A stretch of 63,654 nt of DNA, from contig CAYWFK010000007.1 in assembly GCA_964457375.1 (NCBI GenBank), positions 1-63,654 on the forward strand, given 5' to 3'. This DNA comes from an uncultured Anaerolineales bacterium. Lineage in GTDB: Bacteria > Chloroflexota > Anaerolineae > Anaerolineales > UBA11858. Under the pieces are notes generated by a model. The model was given only the letters and a program-made list of their open reading frames with translations. It ran no database searches and was not told the DNA's origin. Shown here in pieces: positions 30,871 to 55,641 of the stretch. Positions within the stretch are counted from its first letter, which is position 1; every line of letters starts with the position of its first letter. Made by a program: the position numbers and the translations under genes.

Positions 30871-32517
30871 ATGATGTCAATTGACAAAGAAAGATTATTG
30901 GCTACGCTAAAACGTATCGACAGGGGGAAAATCAGGGAAGAAGATGTATTCTTCCTGAATGATGCCTGTCGTGAAATGATGGAAATTATCGACGTTCAGG
31001 GGAAAATGCAGGGGAGCAGCTTCTGGGCTGACCGGGCAATCAGCCTGGTGAAGGCTTTGGTGGAAATCTCTTCTTTGCAGCAGGGAGAAGCGATTGCCAG
31101 GGCTGCTGTGGAGAGTATTACCCGTTATTGGGGAATGGACTCCGGGGCATTGATTGTTTGGGATGCCGACATGGACAAACCGGTCAACCGGGTGACTTGC
31201 GGGGACGTCGACTGGGAAGGGCTTCTTTCACCTTATTTGGAGATGAAGACGGAAAATATGCCGCTGGCGGCGTTGTTCGACAGGGACTATACCCAGCTGC
31301 CCTGGGTGTTCAATGGCTTCGATGATGAAGGCCTGACCGATGCGGAAAAGGACTTCATTCGCAAGAATGGAATCAAAACGTTGGTGACGATTCCGATAAT
31401 GGCGGATGGCATGGTGATTGGTTTGATTTTGACCGCAGATGTCAGCAAGGAGCATGCGCTGACCGAGCAGCAATTGGCATTGGGAGGTTTGTTTGCCAAT
31501 CAGGCGGGTATCCTGATTGAGAGGACACGGCTTTACAAGGCGACGCAGAAACGCGCTGCTGAATTGCAGGCATTGCATCAAATCAGTTTGAGTCTCACTG
31601 CCAGCCTCGATTTGCAAAAGGTGCTGCAAGCCATTCTCGAAAGCACCTTGCGAATGCTTGTGGATGCCGAAGATGCTCATATTTTCCTGTTCGACGGCAG
31701 AAAACTGAGTTTTGGGGCTGTTTTGTGGCTGGATGGTAACAAGGAAAAAGTCTGGTCTCAACCCCGCGAAAACGGCTTGACGAATACGGTTGCGCAGAGA
31801 GGAAACTTGATTTATATTCCGGATATGCAGCGTCATGAATTATTCAAGGGGATGCCGTCCAACTGGAAAGGATCGATTATCGGTATGCCATTGAAAATCG
31901 GACATCGGGTTGTGGGGGTGATGACGGTCGCGCATCCGGAAACGAATGCATTTACGGCGGATGAAATCCGGATTTTACGTTTGATTGGCGATCAAGCGGC
32001 GATTGCTATCGAAAACGCCCGTTTGCATGATTTAGCCAATCGTCAGGCTCATACGGATATGTTGACGAATTTGCCGAACCGCCGGGCTTTGATCGAACGC
32101 CTGGAAGATGAAATCAGACGTTCGAAACGATACGAGCATTATTTTACGATTGTCATGATGGATCTGGACCGTTTCAAGCGCGTCAACGATACTTTCGGAC
32201 ACCCGACCGGTGATGCGGTGCTCAAAAATATTGCGGAAAGCATGAGTGATGTGATTCGCGAAACCGATTTTCTGGCGCGATATGGCGGCGATGAATTTAC
32301 CCTTTTGTTGCCTGAAACGGATTTTGCAACGGCAAAGGCCTTAAGTGATCGCTTGAAAGAGGTCATTGCCGGTTATTGTGACAAGAACCGGCTGATTGGG
32401 TCTATTAAACTTGGCTTGTCAGTCGGTATTGCAACTTTTCCGGAACATGGGAAAACAGTGCGGGATTTATTGGCGAGTGCAGATTCGAAAATGTATCGAG
32501 ACAAAACGTTAGGTTGA
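30871..32517 (+). CDS. GAF-GAF-GGDEF diguanylate cyclase
   Basis: Two GAF domains, DMLTNLPNRR, DLDRFKRVND, I-site RETD and intact RYGGDEF. Confidence 0.92.
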   Translation: MMSIDKERLLATLKRIDRGKIREEDVFFLNDACREMMEIIDVQGKMQGSSFWADRAISLVKALVEISSLQQGEAIARAAVESITRYWGMDSGALIVWDADMDKPVNRVTCGDVDWEGLLSPYLEMKTENMPLAALFDRDYTQLPWVFNGFDDEGLTDAEKDFIRKNGIKTLVTIPIMADGMVIGLILTADVSKEHALTEQQLALGGLFANQAGILIERTRLYKATQKRAAELQALHQISLSLTASLDLQKVLQAILESTLRMLVDAEDAHIFLFDGRKLSFGAVLWLDGNKEKVWSQPRENGLTNTVAQRGNLIYIPDMQRHELFKGMPSNWKGSIIGMPLKIGHRVVGVMTVAHPETNAFTADEIRILRLIGDQAAIAIENARLHDLANRQAHTDMLTNLPNRRALIERLEDEIRRSKRYEHYFTIVMMDLDRFKRVNDTFGHPTGDAVLKNIAESMSDVIRETDFLARYGGDEFTLLLPETDFATAKALSDRLKEVIAGYCDKNRLIGSIKLGLSVGIATFPEHGKTVRDLLASADSKMYRDKTLG

Positions 32518-32523
32518 TGAATA

Positions 32524-33672
32524 GTGGTGAGTGACAAGTTGAAAATTCCAGGTGTTCAGGCTGCTGTTGATGTGTGGAAGAATATTCAGGAAGTCGATTT
32601 GCGTCCCGTCCGTGAGGAGGCGGAACGCAATGTGCGCATCGCTATTGTCGGAAAGGCGGGAACGGGGAAACAGGCACTTGCGGCACAGATGCGCTATGAT
32701 CCTGCACTTCCGGAGCAGCGTACCCATACCCCCGTTTGGTTGCTGGAACCGGTGGATGCAGGTGATGACCTCGACGCAGACCTGATTATCTTGCTGGTTG
32801 ATTTATTTGATCAAAAGTACGCGCGTGAAGCGGAACTGCTGCGGCAATGGCAGCAACTTGGGAAGCAGGTGCTGACGATTTTTGTCTTGTCGGCAGATGA
32901 GAATATTGATATGGCGGAAGAAAAACTGGCCAAACTGACCTCCGGCAATGTGTTGGCAGGCTGCATTGGAAACCCCGAGTTTATCAAACAACATTTCGTC
33001 CCGTCTGTAATCAGCCTGCTTGCGGAAGATTTGCTCTCACTTGGCAGGCAATTTCCTCTCTTTCGCTTGCCGATTGCCCGCAAACTAATCAATGACGTTT
33101 CTTTTTCCAATGCCATGTATGCTTTCAGCACGGGAATCGGTGAAATCGTTCCTGTGCTGGATATTCCGCTGAATGTGGCGGATGTTGTCGTGCTGACAAA
33201 AGCGCAGGCATTTTTGGTGTATAAACTTGGGCTGCTGTTCGGGTATTCCGTTCATTGGCGGGATTATCTTGCGGAGTTCAGCGGTATTTTGGGCGGTGGT
33301 TTTCTGTGGCGGCAGATTGCGCGTCAATTGATTGGCTTGATTCCCGTTTGGGGAATTGTTCCGAAGACGGCAGTGGCATATGCAGGCACTTATGCGGTGG
33401 GGGAGGCTGTTCTGGCGTGGTACATAACCGGGCGACAGGTAACGAAAGAGCAGCTGCGCCGGCTGTACCGAAAGGCATTTGCATCGGGAAAAAACCTGGC
33501 GAAATCACTGGCTTCCAAAGCCGCCCCTTCACGCCTGAAACTCTTCAAACGGAAAACGAAAAATGCACTGTCTGCCGGCGGGAAAACAAACAACAAACCG
33601 TGCCCGGCTTGCGGGAAAAACAATCAGCCGGATGCGCGGTTCTGCCAGTATTGCGGGAGGGTGCTCGAGTGA
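32524..33672 (+). CDS. Degenerate P-loop GTPase-like + DUF697/YcjF-like domain + C-terminal zinc ribbon
   Basis: IAIVGKAGTGKQ, IVPVLDIPLNVADVVVLTKAQ, CPACGKNN...FCQYCG. Confidence 0.65.
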   Translation: MVSDKLKIPGVQAAVDVWKNIQEVDLRPVREEAERNVRIAIVGKAGTGKQALAAQMRYDPALPEQRTHTPVWLLEPVDAGDDLDADLIILLVDLFDQKYAREAELLRQWQQLGKQVLTIFVLSADENIDMAEEKLAKLTSGNVLAGCIGNPEFIKQHFVPSVISLLAEDLLSLGRQFPLFRLPIARKLINDVSFSNAMYAFSTGIGEIVPVLDIPLNVADVVVLTKAQAFLVYKLGLLFGYSVHWRDYLAEFSGILGGGFLWRQIARQLIGLIPVWGIVPKTAVAYAGTYAVGEAVLAWYITGRQVTKEQLRRLYRKAFASGKNLAKSLASKAAPSRLKLFKRKTKNALSAGGKTNNKPCPACGKNNQPDARFCQYCGRVLE

Positions 33673-36600: not shown

Positions 36601-36905
36601 ACGGGTGGGCTATTCTGGAACGGGAGTTGCTGCGCAGGGCTTATCAGGATGCCTTGTTACATGCGGCAGAGATACGCTTTGAGCGCGGTGAGTATGAAAA
36701 GGCACTGGATTTGTGCGAGAAAGCACTTCATACGGATAACTGCATGGAACCGGCTTATCGCCTTGAAATGCAAGTTTATGATGCGCTGGGAAACCGCTCG
36801 GGGGTTGTGAGAGTTTACAAGCGTTGTGTGAATACACTCGAAAAAGAACTGGGGGTTGTCCCTTCGCCGCAAACGGAAAAGCTTTATTTGTACCTGACGC
36901 ACTGA
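33669..36905 (+). CDS. MalT-like (STAND) ATPase-TPR-BTAD transcriptional activator
   Basis: Start reassigned to GTG 33669 (overlaps upstream TGA). RPKVIVP...SPPGYGKTT Walker A, MVLDDFH Walker B, central TPR repeats, C-terminal SARP-like wHTH (LEIRAFG) and BTAD (AIELYRGDYL..W...ERE.LR). Confidence 0.88.
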   Translation: MNWQITRPKVIVPRRRSNILSRRRLLAAFEDILDYKLILLISPPGYGKTTLLVDMAHQSELPVCWYSLDPLDEEPQRFLSHFIASIAQRFPEFGERSMALVQDDFQIEANLVQIVNAIVNDAYDHIHEHFIMVLDDFHTVENNRTVIDFINRFIQQVDENFHLVISSRTLLSLPDLPLMVSRSQVWGLSFEELAFRPDEIQALVSQNYRLSLTRAEANALEQRTEGWITGLILSAETDWVNRDGQVLFSRISGVNLYEYWAQQVLERQPPEVRDALLRTSLLDEFNGQICGEVIGKPPKGFTWEKITAVLMKNNLFVQTIDDQSTWLRYHRLFRDFLRAKMAELYPKERAAILWRLAQYFVKKDEWEQAYAIYLRLEDYDAAAQLIASAGRSLLGSGRLSALADWIDRLPRQTRDSYPVLLSLRGYVAAMFGDGDEGLALLNQAAERFQALNDKERLAGVLSWRAAVHRMMGYYQTSIADSKKIIALAAEIENPDMYVAEAYRNYGLSLYRLGEIRNSVEYVEKALDTYLRIGEDDLAAQTSADLGIIFRNLQVYERAEKAYTRALDHWRETGNYVQQVSILNNLGVLVQSQGDYRRAHELFEEAMGKAHGIGYLRAESFALTSLADLYLELEAYQAARDAYANAEALVDQTEDRYLMLYILSKRVFLANQGFDAEEDPRVLLGTMAGIIGRDSSDYECGMLALTAGTLAVECEAFSEAEQQFVQAVECLSKGGKPLECAHAGFSLANLCFLRSEQDKALEHLQKAFQWLEVSGFDCSMAVLGREFKDLFVAFKEMPAVSRKIVPLLSRIEAFEKQLPGIRKEIRRMVASNAFAPPRLEIRAFGTARVEIDGKPVTGSDWMQQRIVRSLFFYLLAHPSYGVSKDVIGTVFWPESSSTRLKRQFKNAIYRLRQALGKNVVLFDGDVYWFNRELDYEYDVEIFREKLETAEKMEDPEIRLNAYQEAIELYRGDYLQDIGDGWAILERELLRRAYQDALLHAAEIRFERGEYEKALDLCEKALHTDNCMEPAYRLEMQVYDALGNRSGVVRVYKRCVNTLEKELGVVPSPQTEKLYLYLTH

Positions 36906-36957
36906 CCGGGGGAAGCGTAAGCCTCAACCGGCAAACAAAACGGGGGAAAGCAATCGC

Positions 36958-36993
36958 TTAAGAGCCACTTTCGGAGACTGGCATTTGCATAAT
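36958..36993 (+). promoter_or_regulatory. 21-bp element copy 1 plus CATAAT -10 box
   Basis: TTAAGAGCCACTTTCGGAGAC at 36958-36978; CATAAT at 36988-36993 (9-nt gap). Confidence 0.7.
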
Positions 36994-36999
36994 AGAACT

Positions 37000-37133
37000 A
37001 ACCGGCAACGGTTTTGTGCGACTGGATACAGGAATGTTTCTGTATCCATAAACGTGGTTAACTGCTTGATAATAAAAGGCACCTGACCCGGTTGGGGGCG
37101 CGAGGGGAAACGCTCCCAACCCCCTTTTTTATT
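37000..37133 (+). ncRNA. Candidate small RNA (~130 nt) between promoter copy 1 and an intrinsic terminator
   Basis: Putative promoter upstream, perfect 9-bp hairpin 37023-37048, terminator 37090-37133, no usable ORF. Confidence 0.4.
37090..37133 (+). terminator. Intrinsic terminator
   Basis: GGTTGGGGGCG/CGCTCCCAACC 11-bp stem (one G-U) followed by CCCTTTTTTATT. Confidence 0.75.
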
Positions 37134-37189
37134 GCCTTTGGAAAAGGAGCTTGCAAGTTTGTAAGGTGCAGCGGTTTCTGAGAGACGGT

Positions 37190-37226
37190 TTAAGAGCCAC
37201 TTTCGGAGACCGCTTTTTGTCATAAT
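37190..37226 (+). promoter_or_regulatory. 21-bp element copy 2 plus extended -10 (TG-N-CATAAT)
   Basis: Identical TTAAGAGCCACTTTCGGAGAC at 37190-37210; TGTCATAAT at 37218-37226 (10-nt gap to CATAAT). Confidence 0.7.
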
Positions 37227-37247
37227 GGGAAAGTCATATGAAATTCG

Positions 37248-37263
37248 GATGTCTATAGACATC
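37248..37263. promoter_or_regulatory. Perfect 16-bp palindrome, candidate operator
   Basis: GATGTCTATAGACATC is its own reverse complement; lies in the predicted 5' leader of the peptide operon. Confidence 0.5.
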
Positions 37264-37327
37264 TATTGAAAATACAAGTTGAAATCTCGTTATCGTTTGA
37301 TGTAAAAACCGAAAGGAGCGTGTAAGG

Positions 37328-37507
37328 ATGAAAGAAATGCAGCAGAAAATGATTGGGTTGATGGGACGAGTTGACAAAAAAGCTATTCAGATTATTTTTA
37401 TCGTTGTTACGCTGAGCTTGTTGGTGATTGGCGGCGGAGCACCTGAAATTGACGGTGGGCCCAGTGGCCCTGGTCCTTTGAGCGTTTTTCTTGGGAGCTT
37501 CTTCTAA
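37328..37507 (+). CDS. 59-aa signal-peptide-like precursor peptide (not in ORF track)
   Basis: AAGGAG RBS 9 nt upstream; MKEMQQKMIGLMGRVDKKAIQIIFIVVTLSLLVIGGGAPEIDGGPSGPGPLSVFLGSFF; TAA abuts the next GTG start. Confidence 0.8.
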   Translation: MKEMQQKMIGLMGRVDKKAIQIIFIVVTLSLLVIGGGAPEIDGGPSGPGPLSVFLGSFF

Positions 37508-38101
37508 GTGATTCTATTGCTGGCCGTGATAGCCGGGCTGGTAACAGGCTGGGCGCGGGCCAGAGTCCGAAACCGACATTTGAATTACCCTGATATTCGT
37601 GAGGGATGGCTGGTGTTACTCGCTGTCATCCCTCAGTTGTTGGTATTCAGAATTCCGGCAGTAGCGAAAAGGCTGCCTTTGTCTCTTGTAATCGGTATTC
37701 TGGTTGTCTCTCAGGCGGTGCTGGTCTGGTTCGCATGGCGTAATCGTCACCAGCAGGGTTTTACCTTTTTATGTGCCGGTTTGTTTTTGAACTTACTGGT
37801 AATGTCGCTAAATGGCGGGTTGATGCCTATTCGTCCTGAGGCAGTTGTCAAAATATTCCCTGCGCTATCACCCGATGTCTGGCAAGTTGGTGCCCGCCTT
37901 GGTTATGGCAAGGATATTGTTTTGACTTTGGAACAAACCAGGTTGTGGTGGCTTTCAGATTATTTCGTTCTTGCAGATAACCCCTGGTTTCGGATGGCTT
38001 TCAGTGTCGGGGATATCTTTATTGCCGTTGGGGCGTTTCTTTACTTATGGTCACTTGGAGGGCCAAATCTACAATCCGAGAAAGGAATGAATCTATCATG
38101 A
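37508..38101 (+). CDS. DUF5317-family membrane protein, putative LspA-like aspartic peptidase
   Basis: LNLLVMSLNGGLMPI...LWWLSDYF...FSVGDIFIAVG motifs characteristic of DUF5317; several TM helices. Confidence 0.8.
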   Translation: MILLLAVIAGLVTGWARARVRNRHLNYPDIREGWLVLLAVIPQLLVFRIPAVAKRLPLSLVIGILVVSQAVLVWFAWRNRHQQGFTFLCAGLFLNLLVMSLNGGLMPIRPEAVVKIFPALSPDVWQVGARLGYGKDIVLTLEQTRLWWLSDYFVLADNPWFRMAFSVGDIFIAVGAFLYLWSLGGPNLQSEKGMNLS

Positions 38102-38448
38102 ATGCAAACTTTGCAACCGCGACGACTTATCGCGATGTTGCTACCCGCAAGCCATTTTCTGTTTCCACGCTTACGGAAAAGCGCACGGTGATCAACGACA
38201 GAGAAATCGGACGTTTGATTGCTGCTGCTGTGATCAATAAAAGATTTTGTGATTTGCTGCTTTCTGATCCATCTCAGGCAATCACTCAGGGGTTTCAGGG
38301 GGAGTCGTTTCACATTGCGGGCAAAGATCGCGAACTGATTCTCTCGATAAAAGCCAAGACACTTTCCGATTTCGCACAACAACTTGCAAACTACCAACAC
38401 ACTGGAAAAAGGAATGATTACCATCGTACCGACCGCGGACGGTTTTAA
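38098..38448 (+). CDS. Small protein resembling NHLP/Os1348-clan leader-like proteins
   Basis: ATG 38098 overlaps upstream TGA; IGRLIAAAVINKRFCDLLLSDPSQAI resembles the NHLP 'I..A..D..F...LL.DP..AL' motif. Confidence 0.6.
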   Translation: MNANFATATTYRDVATRKPFSVSTLTEKRTVINDREIGRLIAAAVINKRFCDLLLSDPSQAITQGFQGESFHIAGKDRELILSIKAKTLSDFAQQLANYQHTGKRNDYHRTDRGRF

Positions 38449-40411
38449 CGAAGCAGATGTAAATCGCAGCCTGTTCTTGCTGGATGAAAATAACCCGCTG
38501 CCTCCCAAGTCTTTCTTGCAGTTTTCCAACACGGAAGAAACGATTATCTGGCTGCTCGACAAAGAGGGTGTATTTACCTTTTCCGAGGGGGACGGGCTGG
38601 CACTTTTGGACTTGAAATCCGGCGGACTGGTGGGAAAATCGATTTTCGATATTTTTGCAAACTATCCCGATATTACAAAATGCATCCGCCAGACCATGAA
38701 GGGAAAATCCTGCCAGTCTATCGATGAAATCAATGGCAAACTGTGGAAGATGTGGGCTTATCCGGTGCGGGATAAAGGAAACAACCTGACCGGAATTAGC
38801 GGAGTGTTTGTCAATATCACCGAGCAATATCAGCGTGAACGGATACAAAAGATCGTTTTGAGTCTTTCGAACACGCTGCGGAATGTGGAAACTTCCGGGG
38901 ATATTCCCGCGGTTATCCTTGACCGGATCATGAGCATTGTCTCGGCAGATGCGGCAATGTTGTTCTGGCGCAAGGGGGTTGCAGGGGTGATGCGGGTCGA
39001 GCTTGGACGCGGCGCCTGGGAATCGTGGAGCGGGAAAACTTTCGATGAAAAAAACGAAACTTTGCGCAGCAAAGAAGCCCGGCGTGTTTTTCGGAGCGGC
39101 AAACCGTACCTTGGTAGTACGCCTGCCTTTTTGGCGGAAAATACGACGGGGCAGCATAGCCCGCTGCATGTGTATGGGGTGCCTCTGGTTTCCATGAATA
39201 ACGTTGCCGGTGCAATTTGGGTGGGCAGAGAAAAACCGTTTTTTGACTATGAGACAATGCTGCTCAAAGCCATTGGGGAAATTGCCGCAAATTCGATACG
39301 TAGTGCCACGCAGCACACTACGACGCAGCGCAGGTTACAGCGCCTTGTCGCTTTGCACAATATCGACAAGGCAATCAGCAACAGCCTGGAATTGCACGTT
39401 ACATTGAATGTGCTTCTCGAGCAGGTCGTTACCCAGCTGGGGATTCATGCCGCCATGGTTTATCTGGTGAAGCCGTATACCCAGACGATGGAATACGCTG
39501 CGGGAAGAGGCATTCAGATGATTGACCTTGTCCAGACGGAATTGCCGCTGGGCGAAGGGCTGGCGGGGCAGGTTGCTGTCAACCGGAAGTTTTTGTATAT
39601 TCAGGATTTGCACAGTGTCAGTGATGCCGGGCGACTGGTGAGAAAAAGTTTCTTCGAAAAGGAAGGCATCGTTTCTTATTGTGGTATTCCTTTGCTGGTA
39701 AAAGGGCAGGTGAAGGGCGTTTTGGAAATTTATTCCCGCCAGGTACTCAATCCCGAAGCGGAATGGGTTGATTTTCTGGAAACACTGGCTACCCAGGCAG
39801 CGATTGCCATCGACAATGCGGAATTGTTCCAGAACCTGCAAAAGACGAACGCGGAGCTTTCGGTTGCTTATGATGCCACCCTGGAAGGCTGGGTTCATGC
39901 CCTGGATTTGCGTGATAAAGAAACCGAGGGGCATACGAAACGGGTGACGGAAGTTACTTTGCGTTTGGCGCGGGCACTGGGCATCGGGGAAGCTGATTTG
40001 ATGCACACGCGCCGGGGAGCATTGCTGCATGATATTGGAAAAATGGCTATCCCCGATGCGATTTTGTATAAACCGGGTCCCTTGAACGAGCATGAATGGG
40101 AAATCATGCGTAAACACCCGGTATATGCATACCAGCTGCTTTCTCCCATCCGGTTTCTGAGACAAGCGCTGGCTATTCCATACTATCACCATGAGAAATG
40201 GGACGGGAGCGGTTATCCCTTTGGGTTGAGCGGGGAGCGCATCCCTCGGATTGCCCGTATTTTCGCCGTGGCTGACGTATGGGATGCCCTGCGCTCAGAC
40301 AGGCCTTATCGAAAAGCCTGGCAGGATAGTGATGCCAAGGATTACTTACGGGAAAATGCGGGGAAGCATTTCGACCCCGATGTTGTTCATATGTTCTTTC
40401 GGATTTTTTAG
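38414..40411 (+). CDS. PAS-GAF-GAF-HD-GYP c-di-GMP phosphodiesterase
   Basis: RDKETEGHTKRV, LHDIGK, HHEKWDGSGYP, ADVWDALRSDRPYR; start 38414 (or TTG 38384). Confidence 0.92.
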   Translation: MITIVPTADGFNEADVNRSLFLLDENNPLPPKSFLQFSNTEETIIWLLDKEGVFTFSEGDGLALLDLKSGGLVGKSIFDIFANYPDITKCIRQTMKGKSCQSIDEINGKLWKMWAYPVRDKGNNLTGISGVFVNITEQYQRERIQKIVLSLSNTLRNVETSGDIPAVILDRIMSIVSADAAMLFWRKGVAGVMRVELGRGAWESWSGKTFDEKNETLRSKEARRVFRSGKPYLGSTPAFLAENTTGQHSPLHVYGVPLVSMNNVAGAIWVGREKPFFDYETMLLKAIGEIAANSIRSATQHTTTQRRLQRLVALHNIDKAISNSLELHVTLNVLLEQVVTQLGIHAAMVYLVKPYTQTMEYAAGRGIQMIDLVQTELPLGEGLAGQVAVNRKFLYIQDLHSVSDAGRLVRKSFFEKEGIVSYCGIPLLVKGQVKGVLEIYSRQVLNPEAEWVDFLETLATQAAIAIDNAELFQNLQKTNAELSVAYDATLEGWVHALDLRDKETEGHTKRVTEVTLRLARALGIGEADLMHTRRGALLHDIGKMAIPDAILYKPGPLNEHEWEIMRKHPVYAYQLLSPIRFLRQALAIPYYHHEKWDGSGYPFGLSGERIPRIARIFAVADVWDALRSDRPYRKAWQDSDAKDYLRENAGKHFDPDVVHMFFRIF

Positions 40412-40429
40412 GAAGAGCAGCACGGACGC

Positions 40430-40456
40430 CCGCCGGCAGCACCGGCGGTTTTTTTT
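40430..40456 (+). terminator. Intrinsic terminator of the peptide/HD-GYP operon
   Basis: CCGCCGG-CAGCA-CCGGCGG followed by T8. Confidence 0.85.
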
Positions 40457-41852
40457 ATCCGGAGGGTAATGGCGTTTTTCGAAACCACGCCGCCGCCTTT
40501 TCGTAAGCGTAGGCAGCTTGCAGCAAGCGGCTTTCCTGCCACCAGGGGGCGATGATTTGCAGGCCGATAGGCAGCCCATGGGATGTGAAACCACAGGGAA
40601 GGGAAATCGCGGGCAGACCGGTTAAATCGAAGATGCCGGTGAAACGGGTGAGTTGTTTTGCGCGCTCGACAGCTTGTGCGGTGTTGGAGAGCGGCGCGGT
40701 GACAGGTGTTGTGGGAAGCAGCAACAAGTCGGCTTTTTCGAAAAGCGACCTGAACCATCGCTTTCCGGTGTGTTGCAGGTGGCGTGCCTCGATATAGCCG
40801 GTTATGGATGTTTGCTTGCCCTGTATCAGGCGTGTGAGTACGTCCTGCCCGAAATTCCCGGGGTGTTGCGCGATACGTTCCGAATGGAATGCGGCTGCAT
40901 CGCACTTCGTGATGAGGCTATTGGCTTTTGCCATGCTTTCTGCGTGCGGCATGCGGGTTTCGATGAGAATTGCGCCGAGGTCTTTGAATGTATTGGCTGC
41001 CGCTGCAATAGCTTTGGATACTTCGTCTTCTGTTGTGTGGAAGTAGTCGCCGACAGGAACAGCGATATGCCAGCCGCGAATACTTTTCCCCAAACGTGAC
41101 GTGTAATCCCCGGTGGATGTGTTTACAGCATAGGGGTCGTCGCTATCGAAGCCGGCGATGGCGTTGAGAATGAGCGCCAGGTCTTCGACTTGTCTTGCCA
41201 TTGGGCCGACATGGTCCAGGTTGCGGGAAAGGGGAATGACACCTTGCTTGCTCACTCTGCCGAATGTGGGTTTGATGCCGGTGATGCCGCAAAGTGATGA
41301 TGGTATGCGAATAGAGCCGCCGGTATCCGTACCTAACGCGCCGAAGCACATGCCTGCGGCAAGGGCGGCAGCAGAACCGCCGGAAGAGCCGCCGGGGATG
41401 CGGCGCTTGTCCCACGGGTTGCGGCAGGCACCATAGTGAGGGTTCTCGTTAGTGACACCCAGTGCCCATTCGTGCATGTTGAGTTTACCCAGAAAGACAG
41501 CACCCTGCTGTCTGAGCCTGCTGACCACGAAACAATCCCGGGCGGGGATATTCTGACGCAGGAACAGCGAACCGGCAGTTGTGCGAACCCCCTTTGTTTC
41601 GAAAAGGTCTTTAATGGCAAGCGGGATGCCATGCAGAGCGCCCCGATATTTACCTGCGGCAATTTCTTTTTCTGCCTGCTTTGCCTCCTGTAAGGCGGTT
41701 TCTCCCGTGAGGGTGATGAAGGCGTTGATTTCCGGTTCGCTTTGGGTAATCTGCTCCAGACAGCGCCCGGTTACCTCGACAGGGGAGATTTCATGTTTGG
41801 CAATCAGGGCGCTGAGTTCGTGGAGCGAGAGAGATAGCAAGCTGTTCATCAA
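40455..41852 (-). CDS. Amidase signature family enzyme (GatA-like, stand-alone)
   Basis: IKDLF (Lys), GGSSGGS, GTDTGGSIR Ser-cisSer-Lys triad; no gatB/gatC nearby. Confidence 0.88.
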   Translation of the reverse strand: MMNSLLSLSLHELSALIAKHEISPVEVTGRCLEQITQSEPEINAFITLTGETALQEAKQAEKEIAAGKYRGALHGIPLAIKDLFETKGVRTTAGSLFLRQNIPARDCFVVSRLRQQGAVFLGKLNMHEWALGVTNENPHYGACRNPWDKRRIPGGSSGGSAAALAAGMCFGALGTDTGGSIRIPSSLCGITGIKPTFGRVSKQGVIPLSRNLDHVGPMARQVEDLALILNAIAGFDSDDPYAVNTSTGDYTSRLGKSIRGWHIAVPVGDYFHTTEDEVSKAIAAAANTFKDLGAILIETRMPHAESMAKANSLITKCDAAAFHSERIAQHPGNFGQDVLTRLIQGKQTSITGYIEARHLQHTGKRWFRSLFEKADLLLLPTTPVTAPLSNTAQAVERAKQLTRFTGIFDLTGLPAISLPCGFTSHGLPIGLQIIAPWWQESRLLQAAYAYEKAAAWFRKTPLPSG

Positions 41853-41864
41853 GGCTTTTGCCGA

Positions 41865-42476
41865 TTAGGCATTGTCAGCAAGCAATTTGCTCAATTCTTC
41901 TTTCGTCTGTGCCGGCGAGACAAATTGAATTGCGTGTATGCCAACTTTGCGGGCGCTGTCGACGTTCCCGGAAAAATCGTCGATGAAAACTGTTTCTTCC
42001 GGGTTCAGGTCGAGCTGTGCCAAAGCAATTTGGTAAATGCCGGGATCGGGTTTCATCAACCCGACTTCGGCAGAAATGATGATTTCATCGAAGATGTCGG
42101 CAATTCCCCATTCGTCACTGAGCATTTGGCGCAAGTCGAGCCATGCATTGCTTAGCAATGCCGTTTTGTATTGGCTTTTCAGGGAGCGAATGAAGCTGAC
42201 AAGTTCGGTATCCAGTGCGTCGCCTCCCCAAAAACGGGATTGGACGGCTTCTTTTTGGTCGGGAGGTGCCCCGATTTCAGCAAGGACGACATCCCATAAT
42301 TTATCGGGTTTGATTTTCCCCTTTTGAGCCTGCAAGCCGGGCGGGCTGGCGAAAACCAGGAATTCCAGGGCGTAGCGTGTCATGCCGAATTCCGATGCGA
42401 GTTTCGTGCGGGGTTCGGAATTCATTGTGCGCAACAGCACACCGCCGAAATCCCAGATGATGGCTTTGATGGTCAT
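41865..42476 (-). CDS. HAD-superfamily phosphatase
   Basis: DFGGVL motif I, LLSNA, KPDPGIY, FIDD motif IV. Confidence 0.88.
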   Translation of the reverse strand: MTIKAIIWDFGGVLLRTMNSEPRTKLASEFGMTRYALEFLVFASPPGLQAQKGKIKPDKLWDVVLAEIGAPPDQKEAVQSRFWGGDALDTELVSFIRSLKSQYKTALLSNAWLDLRQMLSDEWGIADIFDEIIISAEVGLMKPDPGIYQIALAQLDLNPEETVFIDDFSGNVDSARKVGIHAIQFVSPAQTKEELSKLLADNA

Positions 42477-55553: not shown

Positions 55554-55641
55554 CGGAGAGGGTGGGATTCGAACCCACGGTGGCACAGGATGCCACAACG
55601 GTTTTCGAGACCGCCCCAATCGTCCACTCTGGCACCTCTCC
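55554..55641 (-). tRNA. tRNA-Ser(CGA), CCA not encoded
   Basis: GGAGAGG/CCTCTCC acceptor stem, anticodon loop CT-CGA-AA, long variable arm, GGGTTCGAATCCC T-arm, discriminator G followed by CAA. Confidence 0.97.

Follow-up and report, generated by a model that had tools for sequence, protein, structure and literature searches.

The window analysed here is a 63,654-nucleotide (nt) stretch from an uncultured Anaerolineales bacterium (Chloroflexota; GenBank assembly GCA_964457375.1, contig CAYWFK010000007.1, positions 1 to 63,654, forward strand), and the gene at issue encodes a small membrane protein of the DUF5317 family (Table 1). A gene for a one-helix microprotein stands immediately before it and a STAND-TPR-BTAD regulator gene farther upstream; behind it come genes for a small protein related to the NHLP clan and for a PAS/GAF/HD-GYP protein that, from its domains, is a probable phosphodiesterase of cyclic di-GMP (c-di-GMP). 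Our main new result is that microprotein, DUF5317 and c-di-GMP enzyme form a conserved module, observed at 80 genome loci of Chloroflexota and at about 85 of the Actinomycetota type, for which we found no description in the searchable literature; a literature search on DUF5317, PF17248 and IPR035168 found no paper naming the family. It is an attractive possibility, to which we hold tentatively, that DUF5317 is an aspartyl endopeptidase resembling signal peptidase II (LspA) and acts on the microprotein within this c-di-GMP-linked module.

Table 1. Features in and around the DUF5317 cassette of the window (TM, transmembrane; ORF, open reading frame).
Feature	Position (nt)	Strand	Basis or remark
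GAF-GAF-GGDEF diguanylate cyclase	30871..32517	+	Pfam GGDEF 5e-44
382-residue protein, C-terminal zinc ribbon	32524-33672	+	just upstream of the regulator
STAND NTPase/TPR (MalT-like)/BTAD regulator, ~1078 residues	33669..36905	+	Pfam TPR_12, BTAD, TPR_MalT, AAA_16
59-residue microprotein gene	37328..37507	+	ORF; TAA stop abuts the DUF5317 GTG start
DUF5317 membrane protein gene	37508..38101	+	GTG start, 197 residues; Pfam PF17248
TM4 end, invariant G91-x3-N95 and N102-G-G104-x-M106-P107	37778..37828	+	conservation
LspA-like block, L149-S-D151...F165-S166-V-G168-D169-IFIAVG175	37952..38032	+	near-invariant residues, hhalign, LspA profile search, secondary structure
Putative NHLP-clan small protein, 116 residues	38098..38448	+	NF038399 and Pfam Frankia_peptide matches, below cut-offs
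PAS/GAF/HD-GYP protein	38414..40411	+	Pfam HD_5 5e-38, GAF 1e-21; start uncertain, longest ORF from TTG 38384
GC-rich hairpin and T-run	40430..40448	+	terminator scan, 7 GC pairs; consensus match only

The DUF5317 protein of the window matches PF17248 in Pfam with an E-value of 3.4e-31 (108.7 bits against a gathering threshold of 25), a threshold also passed by 57 of 57 Chloroflexota and 60 of 60 Actinomycetota homologues. It has 226 close homologues, the nearest of them named as Anaerolineae or Chloroflexota, and the family as a whole numbers 4218 clusters (50% identity, E<=1e-3). The best 80 genome loci are all from Chloroflexota, class Anaerolineae and allies, and include Ornatilinea apprima and Anaerolinea thermophila. 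The preliminary description of this gene had singled out three strings, GLFL-N95-LL, LS-D151-YF and FSVG-D169-IFIAVG, and a distance of 18 residues between the two Asp; all are present as described, with N95 encoded at nt 37790-37792, D151 at 37958-37960 and D169 at 38012-38014. Fourteen residues are invariant in the 57 close homologues (N79, N95, N102, G104, M106, P107, G128, R130, L149, D151, S166, G168, D169 and G175). In a wider set of 216 sequences from Chloroflexota and Actinomycetota, G91 and N95 are present in all 216, D151 in 215, S166 in 214, and G168 and D169 in 212 each, with Q43, N79, N102, G104, M106, P107, L149, F165 and G175 also near-invariant, so that the residues chosen in the preliminary description do rank among the few fixed polar residues of the family. 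N-terminally extended homologues (P0241 and others) were considered as peptide-DUF5317 fusions and set aside, as their extensions look like over-called starts in another frame.

The microprotein of the window has a basic N-region, one TM helix ending in LLVIGGGAP and a 20-residue Gly/Pro-rich tail, and it matches no family in Pfam or NCBIfam. Its stop codon abuts the DUF5317 start, which suggests that the two genes are translationally coupled. At least 65 of 81 Chloroflexota loci have a homologous microprotein gene ahead of DUF5317, the remaining 16 being mostly cases of failed start detection or short upstream sequence. The 65 share the basic N-region and a single TM helix with the consensus TL[VA]LFVL[GA]AGAP, in which position +1 is Ala in every case and +2 is Pro in 63. 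Behind LGAGAP the tails run for 5-20 residues (median 8); 59 of the 65 are distinct, Gly makes up 35% of their residues and 22 end in GG. Cys is found in 13 of the 65 tails, never directly after Gly, and a lipobox with Cys at +1 is absent from all 65 of these L-[GA]-A-G-A-P sequences. At the level of sequence, the end L-x-A-G|A-P looks like a lipobox in which Cys is replaced by Ala, and a conserved leader joined to a hypervariable tail is the pattern expected of a processed pro-peptide. The adjacent Cys-less peptide to which the preliminary description had drawn attention is, then, tightly and widely linked to DUF5317 and possesses both a signal-peptide-like helix and a lipobox-like LGAG|AP end.

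The surroundings of this pair are also conserved in Chloroflexota. The STAND-TPR-BTAD regulator is encoded directly upstream on the same strand in 60 of the 62 loci with sufficient flank, and the NHLP-like gene, whose ATG in the window overlaps the DUF5317 stop codon (ATGA), lies immediately downstream of DUF5317 in 75 of 78. An HD-GYP gene follows in 46 of 73 loci; overall, about two thirds of the Chloroflexota loci have a c-di-GMP gene and a third have none within 6 kb. In loci without HD-GYP (L005:5980-6498 and its neighbours), a 172-residue protein of unassigned family, a MarR-like protein and a dCache-HAMP protein follow the NHLP-like gene, and the module may have different outputs in different lineages.

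In Actinomycetota, stand-alone DUF5317 adjoins a gene for a polytopic GGDEF-EAL protein in all five long contigs, the partner being either upstream and overlapping or divergent, and a GGDEF-EAL neighbour is found in 38 of the 43 metagenome loci (88%) with at least 900 nt of upstream sequence. On a plasmid of Euzebya pacifica (NZ_CP031166.1; L099:5001-7541) the two are joined: an 846-residue protein has DUF5317 at its N-terminus and EAL at its C-terminus, with extra TM helices and both Asp motifs intact. The gene for this fusion lies directly after a TM-GGDEF-EAL gene and a small ORF ending ...ATGAPQKWG. An ORF for a one-helix protein of 28-40 residues, reading MKARLYRLA...LEGLGAGxKW(G) or ...ATGAPWKW, precedes the GGDEF-EAL gene in 6 of 6 plasmid and long-contig loci and in 30 of 45 metagenome loci, and occurs as tandem pairs in several (L100, L122, L124, L127, L129 and L150). 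These ORFs carry a Glu within the helix and are mostly unannotated in the records (L099-L104, L105-L184). No NHLP-like gene is present in the Actinomycetota loci. What the two phyla have in common as partner of DUF5317 is the one-helix LGAG(AP) microprotein, and a c-di-GMP enzyme is the usual third component of the module: DUF5317 is fused to, or consistently encoded beside, EAL, GGDEF or HD-GYP domains, which is an association only.

LspA consists of four helices and a beta-cradle, with its catalytic dyad (Asp118/Asp136 in methicillin-resistant Staphylococcus aureus, MRSA) near the outer surface, and has 14 conserved residues: D21, K25, N52, G54, G102, N106, D109, R110, V116, D118, F132, N133, A135 and D136 (PMC6952399). 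In the LspA sequences that we examined the motifs read GxxxN...VxD...FNxAD, and the two Asp are 19 residues apart in Pseudomonas aeruginosa, the figure given in the preliminary description, and 18 apart in Escherichia coli (D123/D141) and MRSA (D118/D136). DUF5317 has counterparts at the same spacing for eight of the 14 residues, in G91-x3-N95, L149-x-D151 and F165-S166-x-G168-D169. Searches of PDB sequences with the single DUF5317 protein and with a profile returned no LspA and nothing meaningful. No lspA gene was found within the window.

An initial profile-profile comparison by hhalign against a shallow alignment of three LspA sequences gave a probability of 0.75%, and both sides were then rebuilt to be more diverse, the LspA profile comprising 29 sequences from Gamma-, Beta- and Alphaproteobacteria and Bacillota. 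Against this profile, 107 DUF5317 sequences gave a probability of 34% (P 4.3e-4, score 31.4) and 216 sequences 36% (P 3.8e-4, 59 columns including both Asp), while the C-terminal half of DUF5317 gave 52% (P 1.4e-4, 63 columns, again with both Asp). In these alignments D151 and D169 fall on both catalytic Asp of LspA, and the resemblance is confined to [VL]xD-x13-F[NS]x[AG]DxxIxxG. Among the controls, reversed LspA scored 22.6, the 99th percentile of 150 column shuffles was 19.3 (with one outlier), and the TM domain of the GGDEF-EAL neighbours, used as a real but unrelated membrane family, scored 17.4 (P 0.1). Excision of 44 residues of the DUF5317 loop, made to join G-x3-N with the dyad block, changed the probability to 54-72% with a score of 28-32, no rise, and left the Asn equivalence unsupported. 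This is the weakest part of the comparison drawn in the preliminary description: the G-x3-N spacing agrees, yet no alignment method pairs N95 with the LspA Asn. An hhalign pairing of LspA GGALGNLxDR with G128-x-R-x-G-x-x-K-D136 was distrusted, the structural model placing that stretch in a loop.

When an LspA hidden Markov model (HMM) was run unfiltered over 25,889 ORF segments of the fetched loci, a DUF5317 segment ranked first, and DUF5317 made up 8, 18 and 78 of the best 10, 20 and 100 matches respectively, none of which is individually significant by E-value and which are not independent of one another. In 70 of 73 DUF5317 domain matches the HMM aligned on the Asp block (HMM positions 122/132-155). 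The signature F[NS]x[AG]Dxx[IVL]xxG, a post-hoc pattern drawn up from both families, occurs in 29 of 29 LspA sequences, in 110 of 161 DUF5317 ORF segments and in none of the 25,728 other segments from the same loci. Taken together, these comparisons suggest that the likeness of the DUF5317 motif to LspA moderately exceeds chance. The TM domain of the GGDEF-EAL neighbours was itself entertained as LspA-like, on an HMM match at VVD...AFNLAQ (E 0.04), and was rejected when the profile-profile comparison was at background (P 0.1); this N-terminal membrane domain, which has no Pfam family, shows weak and probably chance LspA matches at L106:2-1288(-), L167:373-2502(-) and L140:266-2395(-).

An AlphaFold2 model of DUF5317, built on an alignment of 57 sequences (predicted local distance difference test, pLDDT, 89.7; predicted template-modelling score, pTM, 0.83), contains five helices at residues 2-20, 34-55, 58-78, 85-101 and 167-182. 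Helices 4 and 5 are joined by a 65-residue loop (102-166), in which short strands occupy 106-108 and 136-138 and a hairpin occupies 153-158 and 161-165; D151 lies two residues ahead of this beta-hairpin, S166 just before TM5, and D169 is the third residue of TM5. The hairpin register sets residue 151 opposite residue ~168, so that D151 and D169 should be neighbours at the base of a short beta-hairpin. Since the loops 21-33 and 78-84 are rich in Arg, the positive-inside rule predicts them to be cytoplasmic, and the N-terminus, the long loop and both Asp would therefore fall outside; we infer that the C-terminus is inside and that the Asp block sits at the outer membrane face. A control model of E. 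coli LspA (pLDDT 71.9) has H3 at 95-118, a strand at 121-129 that holds D123, a second strand at 132-137, N138 just before H4, and H4 at 139-156, with D141 as its third residue, as D169 is in DUF5317. Common to both models is a local element in which a helix is followed by an Asp, a beta-hairpin and an Asp at the start of the last helix.

By no standard criterion is DUF5317 a member of the A8 peptidase family to which LspA belongs; it shares with it a catalytic-core-like element of 30-60 residues, for which we set remote homology or functional convergence at about even chances, and the link to LspA is real, though weak and local. In the scheme that we favour, DUF5317 would share, or would have converged on, the LspA active-site core and not the whole fold. 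The candidate substrate would be the co-encoded one-helix microprotein, whose LGAGAP end is predicted to lie at the same membrane face as the Asp pair, and a cut at the L-[G/A]-A-G-A-P end would free the short, variable tail at the C-terminus or take it away. Processing of the microprotein would then feed c-di-GMP turnover, transcription or both, through a larger module that in Chloroflexota includes the STAND-TPR-BTAD regulator, the NHLP-clan protein and often HD-GYP, and in Actinomycetota a membrane GGDEF-EAL protein. The data themselves give the motif, its conservation, the local secondary structure and the gene linkage; the juxtaposition of the Asp pair, catalysis, the identity of the substrate and the signalling output are each what we infer for DUF5317. 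A more far-reaching and more doubtful version is that DUF5317 and the LGAGAP microprotein constitute an unrecognised pair of enzyme and substrate or receptor and ligand, serving in Chloroflexota and Actinomycetota as a peptide-processing switch over c-di-GMP turnover and the STAND-TPR-BTAD regulator, with the hypervariable tails as strain-specific signals.

Several results weigh against an LspA-like peptidase. The whole-fold comparison proposed as a test in the preliminary description came out negative: in a Foldseek search of the PDB the DUF5317 model had a best E-value of 4.3 and retrieved no LspA at E<=10, whereas the control LspA model retrieved 5DIR (1.6e-12), 6RYO (9e-8) and 6RYP (~1e-8), and the four-helix and beta-cradle fold of 5DIR and 6RYO is not matched by the DUF5317 model. 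Peptidase_A8 (PF01252) does appear as the second match of the window protein (E 0.076; residues 151-182 on profile positions 108-139), at 13.6 bits, which is below the Pfam cut-off of 25, and such a weak match is found in only 2 of 117 members (1 of 57 from Chloroflexota and 1 of 60 from Actinomycetota). Six of the 14 conserved LspA residues have no counterpart in DUF5317, namely D21, K25, N52, G54, D109 and R110, which are the Asp and Lys of H1, the Asn-x-Gly of the cradle and the Asp-Arg after GxxxN; and the Actinomycetota subfamily alone gives an hhalign probability of 1.4%. On the side of the substrate, LGAG|AP might in principle also be cut by signal peptidase I; a Pro directly behind A-G-A would block that enzyme there, and G-A-G|A-P would still be cleavable. 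In the Actinomycetota peptides no more than x-K-W(-G) stands behind GAG or GAP, a tail that resembles an anchor at the membrane interface more than a product to be released, and the EAL fusion and possible NHLP-like fusions are easier to reconcile with a domain that transduces signals than with a simple protease. The divergent aspartic peptidase maturing the adjacent peptide that the preliminary description envisaged is partly supported: the invariant Asp pair, the LspA-like block and the linkage to the peptide have held up, and the whole-fold match, the A8 threshold and six of the LspA residues have not.

The sensor role to which some of these results lean, in which DUF5317 has no catalytic part and serves c-di-GMP enzymes as a membrane input or partner domain, is possible and in our estimate nearly as likely as a peptidase. 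Q43, N79, N95, N102, D151, S166 and D169 would then bind a ligand, a cation or the LGAGAP end itself, occupancy would be relayed to HD-GYP, GGDEF-EAL or fused EAL output, and the likeness to LspA would be convergent, or a relic as in a pseudo-protease. It draws on the position of DUF5317 at the N-terminus of the Euzebya pacifica EAL protein, on the TM-GGDEF-EAL genes beside it in Actinomycetota (5 of 5 genome and 38 of 43 metagenome loci) and HD-GYP downstream of it in Chloroflexota (46 of 73), on how short a tail (x-K-W) the Actinomycetota peptides have, on the lack of a Foldseek match to the fold of any protease, and on two database proteins, P0265 and P0383, in which a cytoplasmic NHLP-like domain is apparently fused C-terminal to DUF5317. 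These last may be genuine, or, the genes overlapping by ATGA, may be artefacts of a frameshift or of read-through. Against a sensor, most DUF5317 members are stand-alone proteins of ~190 residues with no output domain, a third of the Chloroflexota loci lack a c-di-GMP gene nearby, and the near-absolute conservation of an Asp pair within a motif of the LspA type in both phyla is what one would more typically see in an active site. A peptidase and a sensor are in any case compatible, as the input could consist in a small membrane regulator being cleaved or captured under regulation. Less likely is that the resemblance to LspA is due to chance or local convergence and that DUF5317 has another peptide role, or is a transporter or a lipid-handling enzyme; it might, for example, export or mature the NHLP-clan precursor-like protein encoded downstream, in a minimal cassette for a ribosomally synthesised and post-translationally modified peptide (RiPP) under the BTAD regulator. 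The NHLP-clan gene with its hypervariable tail, next downstream in nearly all Chloroflexota loci with a stop/start overlap, would fit such a role, BTAD/SARP-type regulators are typical of secondary-metabolite clusters, and the similarity to LspA spans only ~30-60 residues at a probability of at most 72%. Yet it is the NHLP-like gene that is missing in Actinomycetota and the microprotein that is common to both phyla, the Asp pair would lie outside and the fused NHLP-like domain in the cytoplasm by the predicted topology, and Foldseek found no match of the model to a transporter-like fold.

Two further assignments of the Asp pair can be largely dismissed. That DUF5317 is a true, divergent A8 member processing lipoproteins is highly improbable and was already disfavoured: the dyad motif and its spacing are held in common with LspA, but against this stand the sub-threshold Pfam score, the absence of a fold match, five helices instead of four, the 44 residues inserted behind the GxxxN helix and ahead of the first Asp, the missing six of 14 conserved residues, Ala and not Cys at the lipobox +1 position of the neighbouring peptide, and a gene context of signalling and not of lipoprotein biogenesis. 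Least probable of all is an intramembrane aspartyl protease belonging to the GxGD type (presenilin, signal peptide peptidase or prepilin peptidase) with S-x-G-D169 as the GxGD motif. It could point to the S-x-G-D at the start of a TM helix and to a Foldseek alignment with presenilin 5fn3_B (78 columns, 24% identity), but the E-value of 8.4 makes that alignment insignificant, Peptidase_A22 and A24 gave no Pfam match even at E<=1 in the window protein and the 57 and 60 homologues, and the GxGD arrangement, with one Asp on each of two adjacent TM helices, is not that of the model, in which D151 is outside a helix, 18 residues upstream of D169 and across a beta-hairpin from it.

Among known systems, then, LspA (MEROPS A8, PF01252; 5DIR, 6RYO) is the closest at the putative active site. 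Both are small polytopic membrane proteins with an Asp pair 18 residues apart in [V/L]-x-D...F-[N/S]-x-[A/G]-D-x-x-I-x-x-G at the predicted outer face, the first Asp at the start of a beta-hairpin and the second at residue 3 of the last TM helix; in both a preceding helix carries G-x3-N, and the candidate substrate helix of DUF5317 is signal-peptide-like with a small-residue end. DUF5317 differs in lacking the H1 Asp and Lys, the cradle Asn-x-Gly-Ala-Ala and the Asp-Arg, in having five helices and a 44-residue insertion ahead of the first Asp, and in a candidate substrate that offers Ala-Pro where LspA requires a lipidated Cys. The module also recalls AgrB/AgrD-type pairs of a dedicated membrane peptidase and a small pro-peptide, known from the maturation of quorum-sensing peptides, in which a small polytopic membrane protein, a short peptide with a conserved membrane-associated part and a hypervariable part, and a regulator are encoded together. 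AgrB, however, is a cysteine peptidase that works at the inner face, DUF5317 has no AgrB match in Pfam, the variable part in the DUF5317 system is a C-terminal tail predicted to be outside, and the regulator is a cytoplasmic STAND-TPR-BTAD protein. The one EAL fusion, the HD-GYP and TM-GGDEF-EAL neighbours and the one-helix microprotein bring to mind the MASE and 5TMR-LYT input domains and the MgrB-PhoQ pair, but DUF5317 is usually a separate polypeptide, has no Pfam relation to MASE or 5TMR-LYT domains, and has a protease-like invariant Asp pair. Finally, RiPP cassettes of the NHLP/Nif11 type resemble the Chloroflexota version, in which the small protein encoded downstream is a probable member of the NHLP clan with a leader-like domain and hypervariable tail and a BTAD regulator is near by; the DUF5317 cassette differs in having no modifying enzyme, C39-peptidase ABC exporter or Gly-Gly cleavage motif, and the Actinomycetota module in having no NHLP-like gene.

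DUF5317 is a large family without known function, for which an LspA-like working at the active site is a live and testable hypothesis. LspA, the peptidase activity of which is blocked by globomycin and myxovirescin, is an antibiotic target and, to our knowledge, the sole family of its clan. If the peptidase reading is true, DUF5317 would be a second family built on the LspA dyad geometry with another substrate, and would show how that active site evolved; sensitivity to globomycin-like inhibitors would be predicted. In the more far-reaching version, no earlier relative of the LspA active site would have worked on a signal-like peptide that lacks Cys and is not a lipoprotein, and the module would in effect amount to a new pathway of peptide signalling, in two phyla for which none is known. 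Whatever the answer for LspA, the module is a testable entry to the input signals of c-di-GMP systems, which are mostly unknown, and to peptide signalling in the poorly studied Anaerolineae, for which Ornatilinea apprima and Anaerolinea thermophila are cultured hosts.

The remaining components of the window cassette can be described more briefly. The NHLP-like protein has a conserved leader-like domain of ~60 residues and a hypervariable C-terminal tail. NF038399 (the Os1348 family of the NHLP clan) is matched by 30 of 30 members with a best E-value of 4.6e-9 and Frankia_peptide by 26 of 30, in both cases below the curated cut-offs, the window protein scoring 19 bits with NF038399 against a cut-off of 40. 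Its core reads E-x-S-R-L-L-T-A-A-V-V-N-x-x-F-x-x-L-L-x-N-P...S-L-x-D-F-A-x-Q-L (window, L019-L098); many of the tails are made up of Asn-Gly repeats or have AAD, AGD or GD as their last residues, and no modifying enzyme or C39 exporter is encoded near the gene. The transcription unit of peptide, DUF5317, NHLP-like and HD-GYP genes probably ends at the hairpin behind the last of these, to judge from its match to a terminator consensus.

Upstream, the longest mechanical ORF of the regulator begins earlier than the start adopted in Table 1, at 33255, and a 422-nt non-coding gap (36906-37327) separates the regulator from the microprotein gene. A search of 36700-40700 against Rfam for a riboswitch ahead of the microprotein gene, for c-di-GMP or otherwise, gave no match at E<=1. 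The diguanylate cyclase gene lies two genes upstream of the regulator, an arrangement kept only in the closest relatives (L002 and L003), in which the pair of cyclase and zinc-ribbon genes also occurs, and its link to the module is looser; the presence of this pair means that the cassette in the window is flanked by a c-di-GMP synthase and a phosphodiesterase. On the other side, genes for an amidase and a HAD-hydrolase (40455-41852 and 41865-42476, both on the minus strand) converge on the cassette. Both also come after it in L002 and L003, which makes this local synteny, probably unrelated to the module. A tRNA gene at 55554-55641 on the minus strand is all that Rfam matches at gathering score across the window.

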